Shown here piece after piece: positions 4,111 through 11,337 of a stretch of DNA of 14,246 nt. The position numbers and the translations under genes are program-made. Every line of letters begins with the position of its first letter. Within the stretch, counting starts at the first letter, position 1. The notes beneath the pieces were generated by a model. It saw nothing but the letters and a program-made list of their open reading frames with translations. It did no database searches and was not told the origin of the DNA. The DNA comes from a virus (Duplodnaviria; Heunggongvirae; Uroviricota; Caudoviricetes), in the IMG/VR virus record IMGVR_UViG_2690316231_000009, positions 1-14,246 of that record, one strand, 5' to 3'.

Positions 4111-5106
4111 TCAGGCCAGCACGCCAATTGCCAGCGCACGATCGATAAAACGAAATATCAGCTCCAGCTGGGAGCCATACTTCTCTTCAAATGCCACGGT
4201 ATCCGCATGCAGCTCGTCGTGATGCTTTCTGCACAAAGGCAACACAAAAAGGTCATGCGCTTTTGTTCCCATTCCACCCTGACCGTGACCTATCAGGTGG
4301 TGGGGATCATCAGCGGGCTTTCCACAACATGCACACGGCTGTGTCTTAACCCAGCGCGTGTACTTTTCATTAACCCAGCGGCGACGTTTTGGGCGTAACA
4401 TAAAAGACTCCGGCGACTCCGGATCCACTTTCAGCGCCAGCACCTTTTTCGCCTTATCCTGGATGATGCTGGTGGCAGGAACCGAAGGCACAAGGTCACT
4501 TTCCCGGGTAACAGACGGCACAACAGGCTTCGGTAATCTCAGTGCCTTACGGGCTGCACTTTCCGGTAAGGCATCCGCCAGATCATTACGAATCAGCCAC
4601 CAGCACAGTTCCGGCATTGTCACAACGTGACTGTCATCAAAACCGAGATCCCGACGCACAACAGACAACACCCAGCGGGCACAGTTATCCGTTGCCATTG
4701 ATTCCAGCCGTTCCGTGAACTGATCGCGCAGCTGGTTATCGCAGTGCCAGCACAGACGGATTGCACCCGGAGCGTGTCGCATTGTGGTCATGTTCTCGCT
4801 GTGCCAGTCGGAATGAGGCCACTGGCAGCCTTTTTCACGAAGTAACCAGCTTTCAAGACATTCCACGCCACCAGCACGACGGATCACTGCCTCATTGCGG
4901 AACACGGCCCGAACGGCAGGATCATCCGCCAGCGGTTGTGATGCCGCCGGAACGGCACCACTGGCGAAAGATGAATAACGCTCCGGCTCAGGCTCCAGCA
5001 GGACACGCCCCTGCATAAACAGGGGCATCAGCTCTGAACCTGGCCTGAACAATACGATCCCCATACGCGGGGCAATTTCAGGGGTCAGTAGTGCTCTCAC
5101 GGTCAC
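4111..5106 (-). CDS. DUF968-family protein (HNH-like Cys/His motif), lambdoid nin-region type
   Basis: 331-aa ORF; C-terminal [45 protein letters not shown] matches the DUF968 signature. GTG start at 5106 lies 1 nt after the KilA-N stop (coupled); exact start uncertain. Confidence 0.75.
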
Positions 5107-5107
5107 C

Positions 5108-5917
5108 TCAATGAACGGTATCGAGCAGCTTTAACAGCTCAGGGAATCGGGATTCGAAGAAATGCGGCTGCGTCTCGCGCGGATTTGCGGGACTGGTGAT
5201 GTTCTTGCCGAACATGCAGCCTTTCGCTGTCAGCGACCAGAATTTTTTGATGTTGTTAATCGCGGTACGACTGTATCGTTCGCGCTGCTCGACGATCCCC
5301 AGTTTCACCATCTGGTGATATGCCTGATTAGCCGTCAGGCGTATACCATACTGTTTCAGCAGTGCACTCAGTGACAGTGTCGGGCGACTTGAGCCATCGT
5401 GTGCATCAGCAGGAGCATCAATGGCATAGCGCGGTGCCAGATTCGGTAAGCCAACAGCCTCCTGGAGTTTCTGACAGGCACCAAGCACAGATGAGTTAGA
5501 CAGGTTTAACTCCCGACGCATAAAGTCCAGCAGAATCACACCAGCCTGCATCTTGTCAGCAGCCTGTCCGGATAATTTTTCCGGTGCGCTGGTTACCATG
5601 TCGAAAGTACGGATCACCTTAAGATGGAATGACGGGCTTATCCACATTGCATAGGCATACACCAGTTCTTTGCAGACATACGTTCCCCGTTCATTTCCCC
5701 CATGAATCACACTCACCGGGTCAACACCCAAATTCTGGGTGTTGGTCAATTCATGAACAAGTTCAACAGTTTGTTGGCTGGAAAGAAACTTTCCTGGCTC
5801 CTTGGTTCTGGCATTTGCACCAGATGCTACTGCTGCGCGATGTAGATCGTTCAGGCTGTAACGCCCATAAACATCACGACGAACTTCAATACCATCAATG
5901 ACCATCAGATTATTCAT
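5108..5917 (-). CDS. KilA-N domain protein (putative antirepressor-like)
   Basis: Best start is ATG 5917-5915 with AGGAG 9 nt upstream (MNNLMVIDGIEVRRDVYGRYSLNDLHRAA...); the track start at 5950 is an 11-codon extension. The N-terminal about 110 aa (...GGNERGTYVCKELVYAYAMWISPSFHLKVIRTFD) is a KilA-N domain. Confidence 0.75.
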   Translation of the reverse strand: MNNLMVIDGIEVRRDVYGRYSLNDLHRAAVASGANARTKEPGKFLSSQQTVELVHELTNTQNLGVDPVSVIHGGNERGTYVCKELVYAYAMWISPSFHLKVIRTFDMVTSAPEKLSGQAADKMQAGVILLDFMRRELNLSNSSVLGACQKLQEAVGLPNLAPRYAIDAPADAHDGSSRPTLSLSALLKQYGIRLTANQAYHQMVKLGIVEQRERYSRTAINNIKKFWSLTAKGCMFGKNITSPANPRETQPHFFESRFPELLKLLDTVH

Positions 5918-7070: not shown

Positions 7071-8066
7071 TCACCCCCTGAATCCTTCCGGGATCTGGCT
7101 GTAGTCCACGTTGTCGTAACTGGCTTTGAAGTACGGGTCCTCGCGTCTGGCTGCAGATACCGCAGGAACTTCCCAGGATTCTTCGAAATGACGATCCGGA
7201 CCAAAGAACGTCGACGCCTGCTTCACGAACTGGGTACCGGTATTTCCAGAGACACGCACCCAGGCGGCATAGCGTTTCACACCGTCGAGCATGGTTTCGG
7301 GTGTCACACCTTCCCTGATTCGGGCTTTCCAGGCTTTAAAAGCGGCGGATTTTGAATTACCACCAGCACGTTTGGGATATTCCTGCCAGGCCTGTTCAAA
7401 TTCCGGTGAATATTCCTGTCTGGCAGAACGCGCTGGTGCAGACGCGTCAGCGGATGCGCCAATAGTGTTTTTAGTCTCCGTTGTAATCTCTGTAGTAATC
7501 TCTGTAGTAATCTCTGTATTTGTATCAACATTCGGCGTATCCCCTGTTCCGTTATGACGTCGGGGGGTGTTCCGTTTTAACGTAATAGCTGTATCGCTGA
7601 TTGCATTATTGCTGTTACTTTCTGGCGAAACAGAAGAAGGTGTGGTGATGGCCGCAATTGCCTGTGGGTTGATCCCGACAAACAAAATATTGCTGCATTT
7701 CACCCCATCGAGCATTTCCACCGTGCGTAAATCCAGAGTAATAAACCCTGCATCGCGCAGACGCTTCAGCGCATCTGCGGTTTCCCTTTTCCCGAAACCA
7801 AACTGCTCAGCAAACGCCTGGTAGCTTCTTTGCAGTTTGTCGCCCTGAAAACGCTTGCGATATCCCAGCAACGCTCCGGTGTGCTCATCCCTGACCTCTG
7901 TCGGGCGGTACCAGTAAACGATCTCTGAAAGCAGAGCGATAGCCGTCGCATCCGGACGCCCACTGGGTAGTCGAATATATTTCCACCAGGTCGCAGGTGT
8001 AACATTGCCGGAAATATTAATTTGACCAATAGCCATAACTTCCGGTGTGGGGGCGTAACGGCTCAT
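7071..8066 (-). CDS. Putative phage replication initiator / replisome organizer (O-like) with internal tandem repeats
   Basis: 331-aa ORF; ATG 8066 with AAGGAGG SD; ATGA overlap with the upstream ORF. It sits where lambdoid phages place the replication initiator and contains 12-bp tandem repeats encoding TEITTEITTEITTE. Function is inferred from position and the embedded repeats, not from a recognised motif. Confidence 0.5.
   Translation of the reverse strand: MSRYAPTPEVMAIGQINISGNVTPATWWKYIRLPSGRPDATAIALLSEIVYWYRPTEVRDEHTGALLGYRKRFQGDKLQRSYQAFAEQFGFGKRETADALKRLRDAGFITLDLRTVEMLDGVKCSNILFVGINPQAIAAITTPSSVSPESNSNNAISDTAITLKRNTPRRHNGTGDTPNVDTNTEITTEITTEITTETKNTIGASADASAPARSARQEYSPEFEQAWQEYPKRAGGNSKSAAFKAWKARIREGVTPETMLDGVKRYAAWVRVSGNTGTQFVKQASTFFGPDRHFEESWEVPAVSAARREDPYFKASYDNVDYSQIPEGFRG
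7471..7518. repeat. Tandem 12-bp direct repeats (three exact or near-exact copies plus one degenerate), candidate origin iterons inside the replication gene
   Basis: TAATCTCTGTAG at 7483-7494 and 7495-7506, TAATCTCTGTAT at 7507-7518, preceded by the degenerate copy TAGTCTCCGTTG at 7471-7482. In-frame within the 7071..8066 CDS. Confidence 0.75.
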
Positions 8067-8362
8067 ACAACCTCCTTCCGCAGCATGAGAATTGTGTAGC
8101 CACGCGCAGGTTGTAGTCTGGCTTTTGCATCAATAGTAAGCGTTGCAATTTTTCGGATATGAAGATAACCAGCTCTTTCCAGTGCCAGGGTTTCCCTGAA
8201 TATCGCTTGCTTAGAACAACAGCAGAAATCAGCAAGCACCTGATGATCAATAACTCTCTCGCCTTCACCGTCTGAAGAACCCGACATCAAAACACGCAAC
8301 ATAATCAGGCGCTGAATCGGGTTATCGAAAGCACATCCGCACACAAACTGAAAACAGTTCAC
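8063..8362 (-). CDS. Hypothetical protein (99 aa), possibly HTH-containing
   Basis: GTG start at 8362-8360 overlaps the stop of the upstream ORF (GTGA); its stop overlaps the start of the replication gene (ATGA). No family recognised. Confidence 0.45.
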   Translation of the reverse strand: MNCFQFVCGCAFDNPIQRLIMLRVLMSGSSDGEGERVIDHQVLADFCCCSKQAIFRETLALERAGYLHIRKIATLTIDAKARLQPARGYTILMLRKEVV

Positions 8363-8583
8363 GCCACACCTCCCAGACGCTTAAACATTTTTCCGGAGCA
8401 AAAGGCTATAAGCGGCATACTGACGCGGTAATTACGGCCCAGCGGTTCACAAACCACCTTCTGACATTCACGGTCAACCAGGCTAACACGTAGAACATGC
8501 CCAGCAGGCGTGGTGTACCACTGACCCGGACGAGGACAACGGAAAGTATGATTGGTAAACCGTTTGAAAATATTCCGGATCAT
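8359..8583 (-). CDS. Hypothetical protein (74 aa)
   Basis: ATG 8583-8581 overlaps the TGA stop of the Rha ORF (ATGA). No recognisable motif. Confidence 0.4.
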   Translation of the reverse strand: MIRNIFKRFTNHTFRCPRPGQWYTTPAGHVLRVSLVDRECQKVVCEPLGRNYRVSMPLIAFCSGKMFKRLGGVA

Positions 8584-9740
8584 TTGCGCCCCCTTACCTC
8601 TGAAGGGTTCAGCGACAAATTTATGAGACTGGCCAGCGCCGAAGCATCATTAATATAGTCATATAAGCTAACAGCCAGCGGAGATTCGGCTTTTGCCAAC
8701 ATAGGATAAAGCTGCTGCAGCCAGACCTGATGAATTGATGAAATGTAGGAACAGAGAACGCTGGCGTTATGTGCAACGTCGCTCGGTACAGCGGGCTTTG
8801 AAAGCTGTTTCTCCATCTGGTTAAAGGCATTTATGTATGCCTCTTTGAACCGGGCAGCACGTTTACCCGTGAAACCCATAGCAAGAAACGCAAAACCGTC
8901 TCGTGTGATTTGATAGCAAGGGAGCTTGCGTGTACCACCGTTCGGTTGATTTACCGAAATCGATGTCTCCGCAAAATTGCGGGCACAAAACTCTGGGGAA
9001 CAATCCAGAGTGCGGATCTTTTTCAGCACATCGTCGTGACGCTTGGAGAAGAAGTTGGCAACAGCCAAAGAAGTGGTAACGGCCTGGCCGTTGTCAATGG
9101 TGATTTCAGGTTGAGTGAGGGCTGGGATCGTAGCCATGATGGCAGCCTCCGTTGACAGTGAAAAACTTCCACCACCGGAAACGCCAATTTCACTGGTGGT
9201 GAACTGGACGGGGTTGGCGTAACCGGCGTCAACGGAGACCGGCGCACCTTTCGGTGCCCCCGCCCAGCCCACCATAATCTGGATGTGAGCAAATGCGGAC
9301 GATAAAAAAGACGCTGGCGCGTCATACATCGCCGTTGACAATTTCAGGACGCCAATCCCGGCACCCGCTTTATAAGGTGCCTGAGCAGTGTAACGTCCCG
9401 GAATTGCAGAATCAATATGCTGGTGGTCCTTCACACTCAACAAAATCACGCCTGAATTTCCACAAAGGACTAAAGCACTCATGCGGGTAGTCTTTGCGAA
9501 GATAGATAACGCGCTGTGTTTCTGGCTCCCAACGAATAACATGGACATAAAGCCCTCTTCCGTCACGAAACCAGCGGTTAAGTTCCTGCACAACTCGCCC
9601 CCCACAGTCAGGTAAAGTTCTCTGTGGTTACTTACAGCCAGGTGATTTGGTAATCTGCATTCATGCCGTAACAACAGGTGTTCAGCGACGCTGACCACCA
9701 GCTGTTGCGACAAACGGTTATTTGCCGTTAAACTATTCAT
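8580..9740 (-). CDS. Rha-family phage regulatory protein with an about 200-aa N-terminal extension of unknown function; strong internal start at 9137
   Basis: 386-aa uninterrupted ORF. Residues about 220-310 (LAVANFFSKRHDDVLKKIRTLDCSPEFCARNFAETSISVNQPNGGTRKLPCYQITRDGFAFLAMGFTGKRAARFKEAYINAFNQME) form a Phage_pRha domain. ATG 9740 overlaps the CII-like stop (ATGA). An internal ATG at 9137 with GGAGG 8 nt upstream would give a 185-aa stand-alone Rha protein (MATIPALTQPEITIDNGQAV...). Confidence 0.6.
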   Translation of the reverse strand: MNSLTANNRLSQQLVVSVAEHLLLRHECRLPNHLAVSNHRELYLTVGGELCRNLTAGFVTEEGFMSMLFVGSQKHSALSIFAKTTRMSALVLCGNSGVILLSVKDHQHIDSAIPGRYTAQAPYKAGAGIGVLKLSTAMYDAPASFLSSAFAHIQIMVGWAGAPKGAPVSVDAGYANPVQFTTSEIGVSGGGSFSLSTEAAIMATIPALTQPEITIDNGQAVTTSLAVANFFSKRHDDVLKKIRTLDCSPEFCARNFAETSISVNQPNGGTRKLPCYQITRDGFAFLAMGFTGKRAARFKEAYINAFNQMEKQLSKPAVPSDVAHNASVLCSYISSIHQVWLQQLYPMLAKAESPLAVSLYDYINDASALASLINLSLNPSEVRGRK

Positions 9741-10294
9741 GCGTTAGTTTCTCCACAACCAGAAGCAATCGACGCCACGACGCCCGGAGCTGCACACTCG
9801 CGGGCGTTACTATTTTCTGGAGCGCAGAAGATTTTGTAGACCAGTGCTGCATGCTCCTGGAGCTTCGAAATTGAAAGATACAGTTCGTCGTTAATTGCTG
9901 TCTTCTCATGCGGTTCCACTACACCGTCTTCGATTGCTGAACGAATCTGTTTTGAATAACTGCCGATCTGTTCAATGACTTCCAGTAAACGCTGGTTAAT
10001 ATCGGCATTGTCCACATCCTCGACGTCAGGAAGAGACACAAAGACGCCATTTGCAGACTGCGCCACAGCGTCAGCAATGAAGTGAGTGCCACCAGCACGT
10101 TGTAAAATCATTGCCCATCCCAGCGGGAAAATCTGATCGCCATCGGCACGAAGGCGGTTAAATAATGCGTTCTCTGTTACATCCAGCCACTCAGCAGCTT
10201 CAGCGTAACCCTCCGGCAACGCCGCGATAGTTTTTCTGACAGCTTTCACGTACCACTCAGGCTGTTTTTCCACTTTCCAGTGATGATTACCCAC
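9737..10294 (-). CDS. Putative CII-like lysogeny regulator (phage 186 CII / CP76-like), 185 aa
   Basis: GTG start at 10294 with AGGAGG 6 nt upstream; immediately downstream of cro, where lambdoid phages place cII. Assignment rests on position and loose resemblance only. Confidence 0.4.
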   Translation of the reverse strand: MGNHHWKVEKQPEWYVKAVRKTIAALPEGYAEAAEWLDVTENALFNRLRADGDQIFPLGWAMILQRAGGTHFIADAVAQSANGVFVSLPDVEDVDNADINQRLLEVIEQIGSYSKQIRSAIEDGVVEPHEKTAINDELYLSISKLQEHAALVYKIFCAPENSNARECAAPGVVASIASGCGETNA

Positions 10295-10547
10295 GGCTTA
10301 CCTCCTGTTCCTGTGGTTTAAACCCATTCTGGTTTTGGCTAGATTGAAAACGTGCCGGATAAAGAATCTGCATTTCGCTGATTTCACCCTTAAAAAAATT
10401 GGCCAGACGTTCTGCAAGATCGATAGATGGAATTTGTTCCAGTCTTTCAATACGACTCAGCGTCGCTGGATTGACCTGAACGCCAGCAGCAACATGCTGC
10501 AAAGTAAATCCGTGCGCCTTACGCACATTCCGTAATGGTGATTGCAT
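10287..10547 (-). CDS. Cro-like HTH (XRE-family) regulator
   Basis: 86 aa; MQSPLRNVRKAHGFTLQHVAAGVQVNPATLSRIERLEQIPSIDLAERLANFF is a canonical XRE HTH. Divergent from the repressor gene across an operator-rich spacer; GGAGG SD upstream of ATG 10547. Confidence 0.75.
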   Translation of the reverse strand: MQSPLRNVRKAHGFTLQHVAAGVQVNPATLSRIERLEQIPSIDLAERLANFFKGEISEMQILYPARFQSSQNQNGFKPQEQEVSRG

Positions 10548-10644: not shown

Positions 10645-11337
10645 ATGAACATAGGAAACCGAGTCAGACAACTTCGCCAGGCGAAGAACATGAAAATCGC
10701 CGATCTCGCTGAAGCAATAGGAGTGGATGCGGCGAATATCTCACGCCTGGAAACAGGTAAGCAGAAACAATTCACTGAACAAGCCCTGAGTAATATTGCC
10801 AGGAGCTTAGGTGTTGATATTGCTGATCTCTTTACCTCAGACGTCAAAAGTAATACTGTATGTAAAAACAGTATTAGTGAGGATGTTGCGCAGGTGAAGG
10901 ATGTATTCCGTATTGAAATGCTGGATGTCAGTGCCAGTGCGGGAAATGGCCTTATCCAGGGCGGTGATGTCATTGATGTGATTCATGCCATTGAATACAG
11001 AACTGATAATGCTGTATCGATGTTTGGCGGACGGCCAGCCAATCACATTAAAGTTATCAACGTTCGTGGGGACAGTATGTGTCCAACCATTGAGCCAGGA
11101 GATCTCATCTTCGTTGATGTCAGTATCAATCAGTTTGATGGAGATGGTATCTATGTATTTGGTTTTGATGATAAAATTTATGTCAAACGACTGCAAATGA
11201 TACCTGACAAACTACTGGTGATTTCTGATAACCAGATTTACCGTGAATGGGGAATTACCAGCGAAAATGAACACCGGTTTATGGTCTTTGGAAAGGTCTT
11301 AATCAGCCAGTCACAAACCCTTAAGCGACACAATTAA
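10645..11337 (+). CDS. CI-type prophage repressor (HTH_XRE N-domain plus S24 LexA-like autopeptidase C-domain)
   Basis: 230 aa; N-terminal HTH (VRQLRQAKNMKIADLAEAIGVDAANISRLETGK); Ala-Gly cleavage site (SASAGNG); catalytic Ser in GDSMCPTI and Lys in YVKRL. No SD precedes the ATG at 10645. Confidence 0.9.
   Translation: MNIGNRVRQLRQAKNMKIADLAEAIGVDAANISRLETGKQKQFTEQALSNIARSLGVDIADLFTSDVKSNTVCKNSISEDVAQVKDVFRIEMLDVSASAGNGLIQGGDVIDVIHAIEYRTDNAVSMFGGRPANHIKVINVRGDSMCPTIEPGDLIFVDVSINQFDGDGIYVFGFDDKIYVKRLQMIPDKLLVISDNQIYREWGITSENEHRFMVFGKVLISQSQTLKRHN

Follow-up and report, generated by a model that had tools for sequence, protein, structure and literature searches.

C4 and IsrK RNA genes in the annotated N-terminal half of a lambdoid prophage Rha protein

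The window analysed here is the whole 14,246-nucleotide (nt) stretch of IMG/VR record IMGVR_UViG_2690316231_000009, and it represents the immunity/replication region of a lambdoid prophage. Its minus strand carries a cro-like gene, ymfL, a long open frame, small open reading frames (ORFs) and an O-like gene, and at least 80% of the segment from 8300 to 10300 is present in 509 of 5426 complete E. coli genomes. Our subject is the long frame (9740..8580), whose 386 codons are annotated as a single Rha family protein by the Prokaryotic Genome Annotation Pipeline (PGAP; Table 1). A sequence-only reading of this DNA had described such a frame, with a Rha domain in its C-terminal half and a start coupled to the preceding gene. 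Both descriptions are confirmed, with the strand corrected to minus: the start codon of the frame (ATG, 9740-9738) forms an ATGA with the stop codon of the ymfL/CII-like gene (TGA, 9739-9737), Phage_pRha (PF09669) matches amino acids (aa) 222-311 with 97.3 bits (cut-off 29.9, E 8e-28), and the TIGR02681 model gives 90.7 bits (cut-off 45.95). The 603 nt that precede the internal ATG at 9137, in contrast, are the control region of the Rha gene, inserted in the early rightward operon after ymfL, and only the last 185 codons of the frame encode protein under amino-acid-level selection. The locus very likely adds one more case to the known antirepressor modules under C4/IsrK control, and its annotation as an Ash-Rha fusion is mistaken.

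The control region contains a gene for a C4 antisense RNA, which matches its Rfam model over the full length and ends 55 nt upstream of the internal ATG. This ATG is codon 202 of the long frame (9137-9135) and is separated from its GGAGG by an 8-nt spacer (CTGCCATC). Two segments of C4, the loop b' of the second hairpin and the single-stranded a', are complementary in the window to the downstream sites b2 (10 nt) and a2 (7 nt), and since b2 contains the GGAGG, the internal start is the predicted target of the antisense RNA. Upstream of C4 lies the small RNA (sRNA) gene IsrK, within which a1 and b1 form decoy/target copies of the same C4 target sites.

Both the structure of C4 and its pairing with the targets are maintained across related phages. 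In 14 aligned C4 sequences the three-helix structure comprises 27 pairs, with 100% of the 378 cells paired; 13 of these 27 pairs are altered on both sides, which was equalled in 0 of 500 shuffles, and controls slid along the alignment were 33-50% paired. The 3' CCACCA motif of C4 is also conserved. In a comparison of 15 loci that includes the P1-like immI region and Gifsy-1, b'/b2 (6-10 nt) and a'/a2 (mostly 7 nt) stay complementary in 15 of 15, though the sequences themselves differ. For b'/b2 these are CTCCGTTGAC / GTCAACGGAG in the window, ..CCTTGATC / GATCAAGG.. in SfV, TCTATGTTGA / TCAACATAGA in ST64B, TCTTTGGTGA / TCACCAAAGA in mEp460, CCTTTGAC / GTCAAAGG in the P1-like RCS47 and CCTTGATTG / CAATCAAGG in F765, and the a'/a1/a2 sites covary likewise (ACGCCAA, TTTCCAC, GTCTCAA, GTGAGAA, CTGCGA and others). 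Because the b'/b2 and a'/a2 sequences differ among loci, many RNA specificities are suggested. The full read-through RNA (9380..9120) forms a much more stable fold than shuffled controls do (z = -5.4), and its minimum-free-energy structure, as read from the dot-bracket string, appears to pair the b' region with the b2/Shine-Dalgarno region in cis.

The IsrK and C4 pair scores above the gathering thresholds in all 14 related phage loci that we fetched (SfV, ST64B, mEp460, several Stx phages, VT2-Sakai, a P1-like phage, Klebsiella and Actinobacillus phages and an E. coli prophage), as well as in P4 and Gifsy-1. In each of the 15 loci compared, the P1-like immI region among them, hexamers resembling a promoter precede the IsrK 5' end at an equal distance. 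The cassette can also stand in unannotated intergenic DNA before other antirepressor-type genes, as it does in VT2-Sakai, Stx2a_F765, a Klebsiella phage and TL-2011b, where the frame annotated elsewhere as 'Ash' has stops.

Table 1. Features of the long frame and its surroundings in the window
Feature	Position	Strand	Basis or detail
Rha-type regulatory protein, 185 aa from internal ATG	8580..9137	-	Pfam and TIGR02681; Rha domain 9077-8808
C4 antisense RNA (Rfam RF01695, clan CL00128)	9279..9192	-	81.4 bits, gathering score 45, E 5e-15, full length 1-87
Loop b' CTCCGTTGAC (C4 second hairpin)	9237-9228	-	sequence reading
Single-stranded a' ACGCCAA	9220-9214	-	sequence reading
a2 ATTGGCGT	9188-9181	-	C4 target region 9138..9191
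b2 TGTCAACGGAG	9157-9147	-	overlaps Shine-Dalgarno GGAGG 9150-9146
IsrK sRNA (Rfam RF01394)	9380..9304	-	62.2 bits, gathering score 50
a1 ATTGGCGT	9356-9349	-	inside IsrK
b1 TGTCAACGG	9340-9332	-	inside IsrK
Intrinsic terminator-like site	9323-9304	-	hairpin 9323-9310 and T6, to 9304; sequence reading and terminator scan
Putative IsrK/C4 promoter	9387..9415	-	-35 TTGATT 9415-9410, 17-nt spacer, -10 TACACT 9392-9387, then 6 nt, +1 G 9380
DUF4222 gene, 59 aa, GTG start after GGGGGG	9591..9412	-	PF13973, phrog_1343; +2 frame relative to long ORF
ymfM-type translation start, GTGGAGAAACTAACGC + ATG (MNSLT...)	9738..9756	-	conserved context
Composite open frame, RefSeq 'Rha family phage regulatory protein' WP_001087333.1	8580..9740	-	386 aa, PGAP
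Phage_CP76/ymfL CII-like gene	10294..9737	-	adjoins long frame upstream
Genes in coupled chain downstream of long frame	8063-8583, 7071-8066	-	overlapping stop/start codons
CI-like repressor	10645-11337	+	window immunity region

The closest described counterpart is the isrK-orf45-anrP module of Gifsy-1 in Salmonella (Hershko-Shalev et al. 2016, PMC4825925). There the promoter PisrK is experimentally defined, and orf45 is translated from an AUG at +107 within a C4-like RNA; orf45 is conserved in nucleotide but not in amino-acid sequence, the antirepressor AnrP is made only if orf45 is translated, and the orf45 stop shares an AUGA with the start of the antirepressor gene (PMC4825925). The two loci share one order of parts: a promoter, putative in the window, IsrK with a terminator, an RNA that matches Rfam C4 (in Gifsy-1 the processed STnc1160/orf45' of ~80 nt) and an antirepressor-type gene, and IsrK and C4 score above the gathering thresholds in both. 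In the window the AUG within the 5' part of C4 is at 9275, which is +106 when counted from the start of IsrK, and the Shine-Dalgarno lies inside a C4-complementary b2; our check of Gifsy-1 found IsrK, C4 and a Shine-Dalgarno-containing b2 before anrP, which encodes an ORF6N protein. The Gifsy-1 module differs in being free-standing beside antQ, whereas that of the window is embedded in the early operon after ymfL. Moreover, orf45 stops at its AUGA, whereas the 46 equivalent codons of the window run in frame into ATG 9137 with no stop, and the window frame is open as far as a ymfM-type start 201 codons upstream. The regulated protein is of the ORF6N type in Gifsy-1 and of the Rha type here.

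The immI operon of P1/P7 (Citron & Schuster 1990; Riedel et al. 1993) reportedly consists of the c4 antisense RNA, icd and ant1/ant2. C4 is processed by RNase P in P1/P7, and the P1 immI operon is under C1 control. As in the window, a1-b1, C4 and a2-b2 lie on one strand with b2 over the Shine-Dalgarno, and in the P1-like RCS47 the context of the start is nearly identical (AGGAGGCTGCCATyATGGCTAC), the first residues being MAT[IV]P.... In the P1-like phage, however, a TAG within b2 closes the frame that runs through C4, and a 73-codon icd-like ORF and then ant follow, whereas the window ATG opens the Rha gene directly. The P1 immI system is summarised in PMC8198154. The CI RNA of satellite P4, with seqA/seqC, belongs to the same RNA families: Rfam C4 matches CI and IsrK matches the seqA region, and an ORF over the CI RNA was once annotated as a 'cI protein'. 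P4 CI is not known to act by occluding an antirepressor Shine-Dalgarno. It differs in acting by premature transcription termination of the replication operon (PMC4825925, PMC10111431).

By homology with P1 immI and Gifsy-1, one may propose how the window module works. In the lysogen, the cassette's own putative promoter would yield IsrK, and also C4 by read-through and processing. C4, probably cut from the read-through transcripts, would pair through b' and a' with b2 and a2 and thereby occlude the ribosome-binding site of the Rha gene. Judged by analogy, the Rha-type regulator is probably an antirepressor, and it would thus be kept silent in the lysogen. RNAs bearing a1/b1, namely IsrK and abundant early-operon transcripts, may titrate C4 and relieve the block. 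Ribosomes could start at AUG 9275 on transcripts that read through from the promoter, or, on transcripts of the early operon, at ATG 9740; in passing they would open the structured region and continue into the Rha frame, with 231-aa or 386-aa forms possibly arising as a by-product beside the 185-aa protein.

Whether the frame upstream of the internal ATG encodes protein can be judged from its variability by codon position. A scan of genome contigs with the N-terminal 201 aa gave 6 loci, too few for statistics, and a scan of IMG/VR with the exact motif AGGCTGCCATYATGGCTAC was used instead; it found 120 loci, with 46 distinct Rha-type sequences available for column entropy. At codon positions 1/2/3 the mean entropy is 0.70/0.72/0.66 over IsrK, 0.63/0.61/0.68 over C4, 0.81/0.82/0.88 over a2-b2 and 0.60/0.46/1.01 over the first 60 Rha codons. 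Since it is flat upstream and periodic from ATG 9137 onward, selection at the amino-acid level starts at this ATG. Pairwise differences show the same picture, being 13/10/33, 24/21/54 and 30/24/56 in the Rha part and flat across IsrK, C4 and a2/b2. In Stx2a_F765 the Rha homologue, at 54% identity, has its annotated start at the homologous ATG, and stops lie just before it. The suggestion of the sequence-only reading that the internal ATG, with GGAGG 8 nt upstream, yields a conventional 185-aa Rha protein thus proves sound: the start is genuine and conserved, and selection begins exactly there.

The same start can introduce quite different products. The Shine-Dalgarno and ATG context AGGAGGCTGCCATTATGGCTAC (MATVP...) also opens the 73-codon icd-like ORF of the P1-like phage, and in the abundant SfV-type 'ash family protein' the equivalent N-terminal 201 codons precede a different, 77-aa Icd-like product. 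A number of the IMG/VR loci (L053, L055, L061, L066, L080, L089, L092 and others) have a matching junction before Icd-like ORFs of 64-65 aa, with 122-160 open codons upstream of the Icd-like ORF in the L053-type loci. These look like the P4-type satellite version of the 'ash + icd-like' arrangement.

The first 110 codons of the long frame lie before the RNA genes. The context of the start, gtggagaaactaacgcATGAAyAGTTTAAC (MNSL...), is kept in 7 loci, in two of which the upstream gene ends ~60 nt away, and the start of the long frame therefore looks functional. The YmfM protein of e14 aligns to aa 1-89 of the long frame with 33% identity. There is no full-length similarity to the 112-aa YmfM (phrog_1170), as only the MNSLT start and aa 48-98 match; aa 14-47 of the long frame are unrelated to YmfM, and no stop occurs at the position equivalent to the YmfM end. 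Differences between the window and ST64B or Stx1_14744 are concentrated on position 2 of the long-frame codons (9/26/15 and 37/51/33), an excess that pointed to coding in another frame. Indeed, the +2 frame holds a DUF4222 gene, matching PF13973 with 51.1 bits (cut-off 27) and phrog_1343 over its full length (E 2e-36), whose TGA stop falls inside the -35 hexamer of the putative IsrK promoter. In ST64B and Stx1_14744 this ORF keeps 85-90% identity, and conservation of the long frame is much lower there. Its differences by codon position (4/3/14, 6/2/23 for e14 versus the Klebsiella phage, and 9/5/26) show a third-position excess, and its third-position changes fall on position 2 of the long, or ymfM, frame.

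Annotation of this part varies. In E. coli JNEC-KY203, which carries a 95%-identical prophage, PGAP lists DUF4222 (WP_001379286.1) and a 300-aa Rha protein overlapping the 3' end of DUF4222, with codons 1-50 unannotated, whereas the almost identical DNA of E. coli E2 is given a single 386-aa Rha. A stop or frameshift was considered as the cause and rejected on the alignment; neither copy has its long frame interrupted, so that only the choice of annotation differs.

In e14 of E. coli K-12 (4823-5181), ymfM (112 aa, annotated as a cell-division inhibitor) overlaps an intact DUF4222 gene in another frame, which has its own Shine-Dalgarno (AAGGAG) and a TTG start, and the same overlap is found in SfII, mEp390 and the Klebsiella phage. 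Between e14 and the Klebsiella phage 47 of 54 aa are identical in the DUF4222 frame (6/2/23), and 26 of 52 in the ymfM frame (2/23/5), which is nevertheless stop-free in all lineages. The study of ymfM cloned the whole ORF without frame-specific mutants, so that either YmfM or DUF4222 may be the product that inhibits division.

If the upstream part is not conserved as protein, why is it open? Over 9740..9138 no stop interrupts the long frame, against 12 and 10 stops in the other two, and its openness is therefore no chance feature. In 85 distinct IMG/VR cassettes, the interval from the AUG in C4 to the start (-138..-1) is stop-free in 80 in the frame of the ATG, against 9 and 32 in the other frames; the corresponding numbers for the IsrK part are 76, 13 and 51. 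All 47 of the 47 colinear cassettes are stop-free, where 44% would be expected under a column-independent null that keeps the base frequencies of each column (0.00 versus 0.79 stops per cassette), and the other two frames match this null. The frame over DUF4222 is likewise open in every lineage examined, whereas synonymous recoding leaves it open in only 1-14% of cases per lineage. The free-standing cassettes (P1-like, F765, VT2-Sakai, Klebsiella, TL-2011b and Actinobacillus) have a stop, typically a few codons before the Shine-Dalgarno or in b2. The open frame is probably meaningful, and these results agree with the experiments on orf45 of Gifsy-1 (PMC4825925). Since it is stop-free yet not conserved as protein, ribosome transit has probably been selected. 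With this in mind, we tentatively put forward, as a reading that falls somewhat short of even odds, that a stop-free but protein-neutral frame has been selected so that ribosomes from ATG 9740 or AUG 9275 cross the immunity-RNA genes, melt IsrK and C4 and bypass the antisense control of the antirepressor in lytic growth. If this were true, Pfam Phage_ASH would be no protein family but a translated RNA cassette, and the 'YmfM' frame of e14 would likewise be a transit frame over a real DUF4222 gene.

One competitor to our explanation of the locus is a pure annotation artefact, in which nothing before ATG 9137 is translated in the long frame and its openness comes from RNA constraint and shared ancestry. 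The flat variability by codon position would fit such an artefact, as would the strong conservation of several parts of the region as RNA or promoter sequence, where stops were not free to appear; the sequences, being related, are not independent, and, by analogy, cassettes of the P1-like and F765 types function with stops placed 6-8 codons ahead of the ATG. We nevertheless hold it to be unlikely, because the stops are depleted specifically in the long frame, the +1 frame over DUF4222 is open in every lineage against the chances just given, the ymfM-type start context is conserved, and translation of orf45 has been shown experimentally in Gifsy-1 (PMC4825925). The verdict of a spurious, never translated ORF is thus weakened by the stop-depletion tests.

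A second competitor holds that two or more functional isoforms are made, as with Ant1/Ant2 of P1: a long one (231 aa from ATG 9275, or 386 aa from ATG 9740) and the 185-aa protein, with distinct roles. In-frame starts, a stop-free frame and a strong internal Shine-Dalgarno would all allow this, and an orf45-anrP fusion was noted in S. dysenteriae by Hershko-Shalev et al. (PMC4825925). The AUG of the orf45 type (9275-9273) is invariant in 14 C4 sequences, but it also belongs to the C4 closing stem; the extension is without amino-acid-level conservation, and an equivalent extension precedes unrelated products, either Rha or the 77-aa Icd-like protein. One gene may make two isoforms, which is one of three explanations offered by the sequence-only reading, and we rate functional isoforms as slightly more doubtful than the artefact. 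Another, an upstream gene fused in frame by loss of its stop, comes close for the last 46 codons, as Gifsy-1 orf45 ends at an AUGA where the window continues in frame, but the upstream part is not one gene.

The third of these explanations, a domain fusion, does not hold, as the upstream 200 codons contain no protein domain but DUF4222 in another frame and a promoter-IsrK-terminator-C4-a2/b2 cassette. It has its apparent basis in Phage_ASH (PF10554), which matches aa 117-212 with 76 bits (cut-off 26) and covers exactly IsrK, C4 and a2/b2. The same model matches the translated c4 gene of a P1-like phage (29.9 bits), the window codons 156-201 alone (50.6 bits) and the P4 ORF 'cI gene product (AA 1-137)' (59.7 bits, precisely over the CI RNA). 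This P4 ORF is the core of Pfam Phage_ASH, and P4 RefSeq still lists it as the coding sequence 'cI gene product (AA 1-137) / transcriptional repressor' at 8168-8584 (minus strand), with the Rfam C4 match at 8507..8420. P4 CI and P1 c4 are established RNA repressors (PMC4825925, PMC8198154). The peptide repeats GIGVL/EIGVS and LSTAM/LSTEA simply result from in-frame reading of the RNA repeats a1/a2 and b1/b2, and no third-position excess was found in the Ash frame, where entropy and pairwise differences by codon position are both flat. Together these observations indicate that the Ash part is an RNA cassette read as protein. In Stx-phage Rha proteins Ash has been treated as a protein domain of unknown function (PMC8951638); the annotated 'Rha/Ash' and 'ash family' proteins (SfV Orf37, ST64B Sb41, Stx 'Eru' phage) are members of this ORF family whose N-terminal 201 codons are 58-92% identical, and the evidence from the window indicates a translated RNA cassette in place of that domain. 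A conserved family with a known N-terminal domain, which the sequence-only reading had expected to count against its proposals, formally exists in Phage_ASH and PHROG 821, but its 'domain' consists of translated RNA genes. A genuine two-domain protein of 386 aa, in which an N-terminal Ash (and YmfM-like) domain with its own function is fused to Rha, is highly improbable: it could draw on the Phage_ASH match, on PHROG 821 over aa 61-386, on a long ORF open in SfV, ST64B, mEp460, Stx phages and Citrobacter, on coding-like codon usage over the cassette and on the treatment of Rha/Ash as domains in the literature (PMC8951638), but codons 121-201 lack codon periodicity, codons 51-109 evolve as the out-of-frame partner of DUF4222, the Ash model and its repeats follow RNA genes, free-standing cassettes have stops in the Ash frame, the called lengths of the Rha gene in databases scatter (181, 185, 249, 280-300, 318-324 or 386 aa), and the AlphaFold2 predicted local distance difference test (pLDDT) gives 22-31 for aa 1-211 against 54-87 for the Rha domain, a weak support as the alignment was a shallow one of 20 sequences.

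Several points weigh against our reading of the locus as an RNA-controlled Rha gene with a protein-neutral leader. One is the codon usage of the cassette, which is coding-like in the long frame, with a log-odds per codon of +0.31 over 9413-9138. The claim of the sequence-only reading that the upstream 200 codons have coding-like usage is borne out for this part, though not for codons 1-50 (~0) or for 9590-9414, where the long frame (+0.09) is below the +2 frame (+0.23). As the long frame is not disfavoured by these log-odds over the cassette, composition alone cannot decide its coding status; given this usage and a frame that is open in all lambdoid 'embedded' copies, a translated product from the cassette is possible and may be functional. 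The Rfam c4-a1b1 model reaches only 22.5 bits, below its gathering score of 46.7, while the IsrK model, which covers these sites as well, passes its threshold. TTGATT-17-TACACT, with an 8/12 consensus match, fell below the threshold of the promoter scan and was not called, and for this reason the IsrK promoter is kept as 'putative' on positional conservation. The sequences are related, so that the counts behind the tests of stop depletion and periodicity imply more independent observations than there are, and they are suggestive, without standing as formal probabilities; the depth of the alignment behind the AlphaFold2 model has been mentioned. The antirepressor role of Rha is put forward from PHROG and Pfam names and by analogy, and the protein regulated in Gifsy-1 is ORF6N and not Rha. 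Finally, RNA production, RNA processing and start-site use at the window locus are all things we infer from the related systems.

The consequences of an RNA-controlled Rha gene reach beyond this prophage. Several hundred sequence clusters from E. coli, Shigella and Salmonella prophages go under the names 'Rha family phage regulatory protein', 'ash family protein' and sometimes 'peptidase', and recognition of C4 and IsrK gives the correct start and size of the antirepressor, correcting a widespread annotation and the concept of a Pfam family. It also exposes an unannotated DUF4222 gene and raises the question of which overlapping frame accounts for the division-inhibition phenotype of e14 YmfM/SfiC. 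The module points to an RNA-based second layer of immunity in common lambdoid prophages, including Stx phages. As the element itself is of a known kind, the value of these results lies mainly in re-annotation and in a testable question of a 'translated RNA gene', namely whether a reading frame may be kept open only for the passage of ribosomes through RNA genes.

Some further observations concern the setting of the long frame. Stop/start overlaps join every gene from the cro-like to the O-like one (10294/10287, 9740/9737, 8583/8580, 8362/8359 and 8066/8063), and this chain of translational coupling stays unbroken across the RNA cassette through the long frame. In NZ_CP148461.1, which is otherwise 100% identical, the match is in two pieces, and an IS481-family transposase and a separately annotated 'Rha family transcriptional regulator' are found there, which suggests an insertion sequence in or beside the Rha gene. 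Elsewhere in the window, near the late region, two sRNA genes stand back to back, both well above their gathering scores: AgvB, an anti-GcvB sRNA, at 579-640 on the plus strand (96.5 bits, identical to the Rfam consensus), and STnc100 at 641-831 on the minus strand (143 bits). Three tandem tRNA genes lie at 1608-1854 on the minus strand (Rfam tRNA 72.5, 68.1 and 43 bits); tandem tRNA genes are common downstream of Q in lambdoid and Stx-type prophages.

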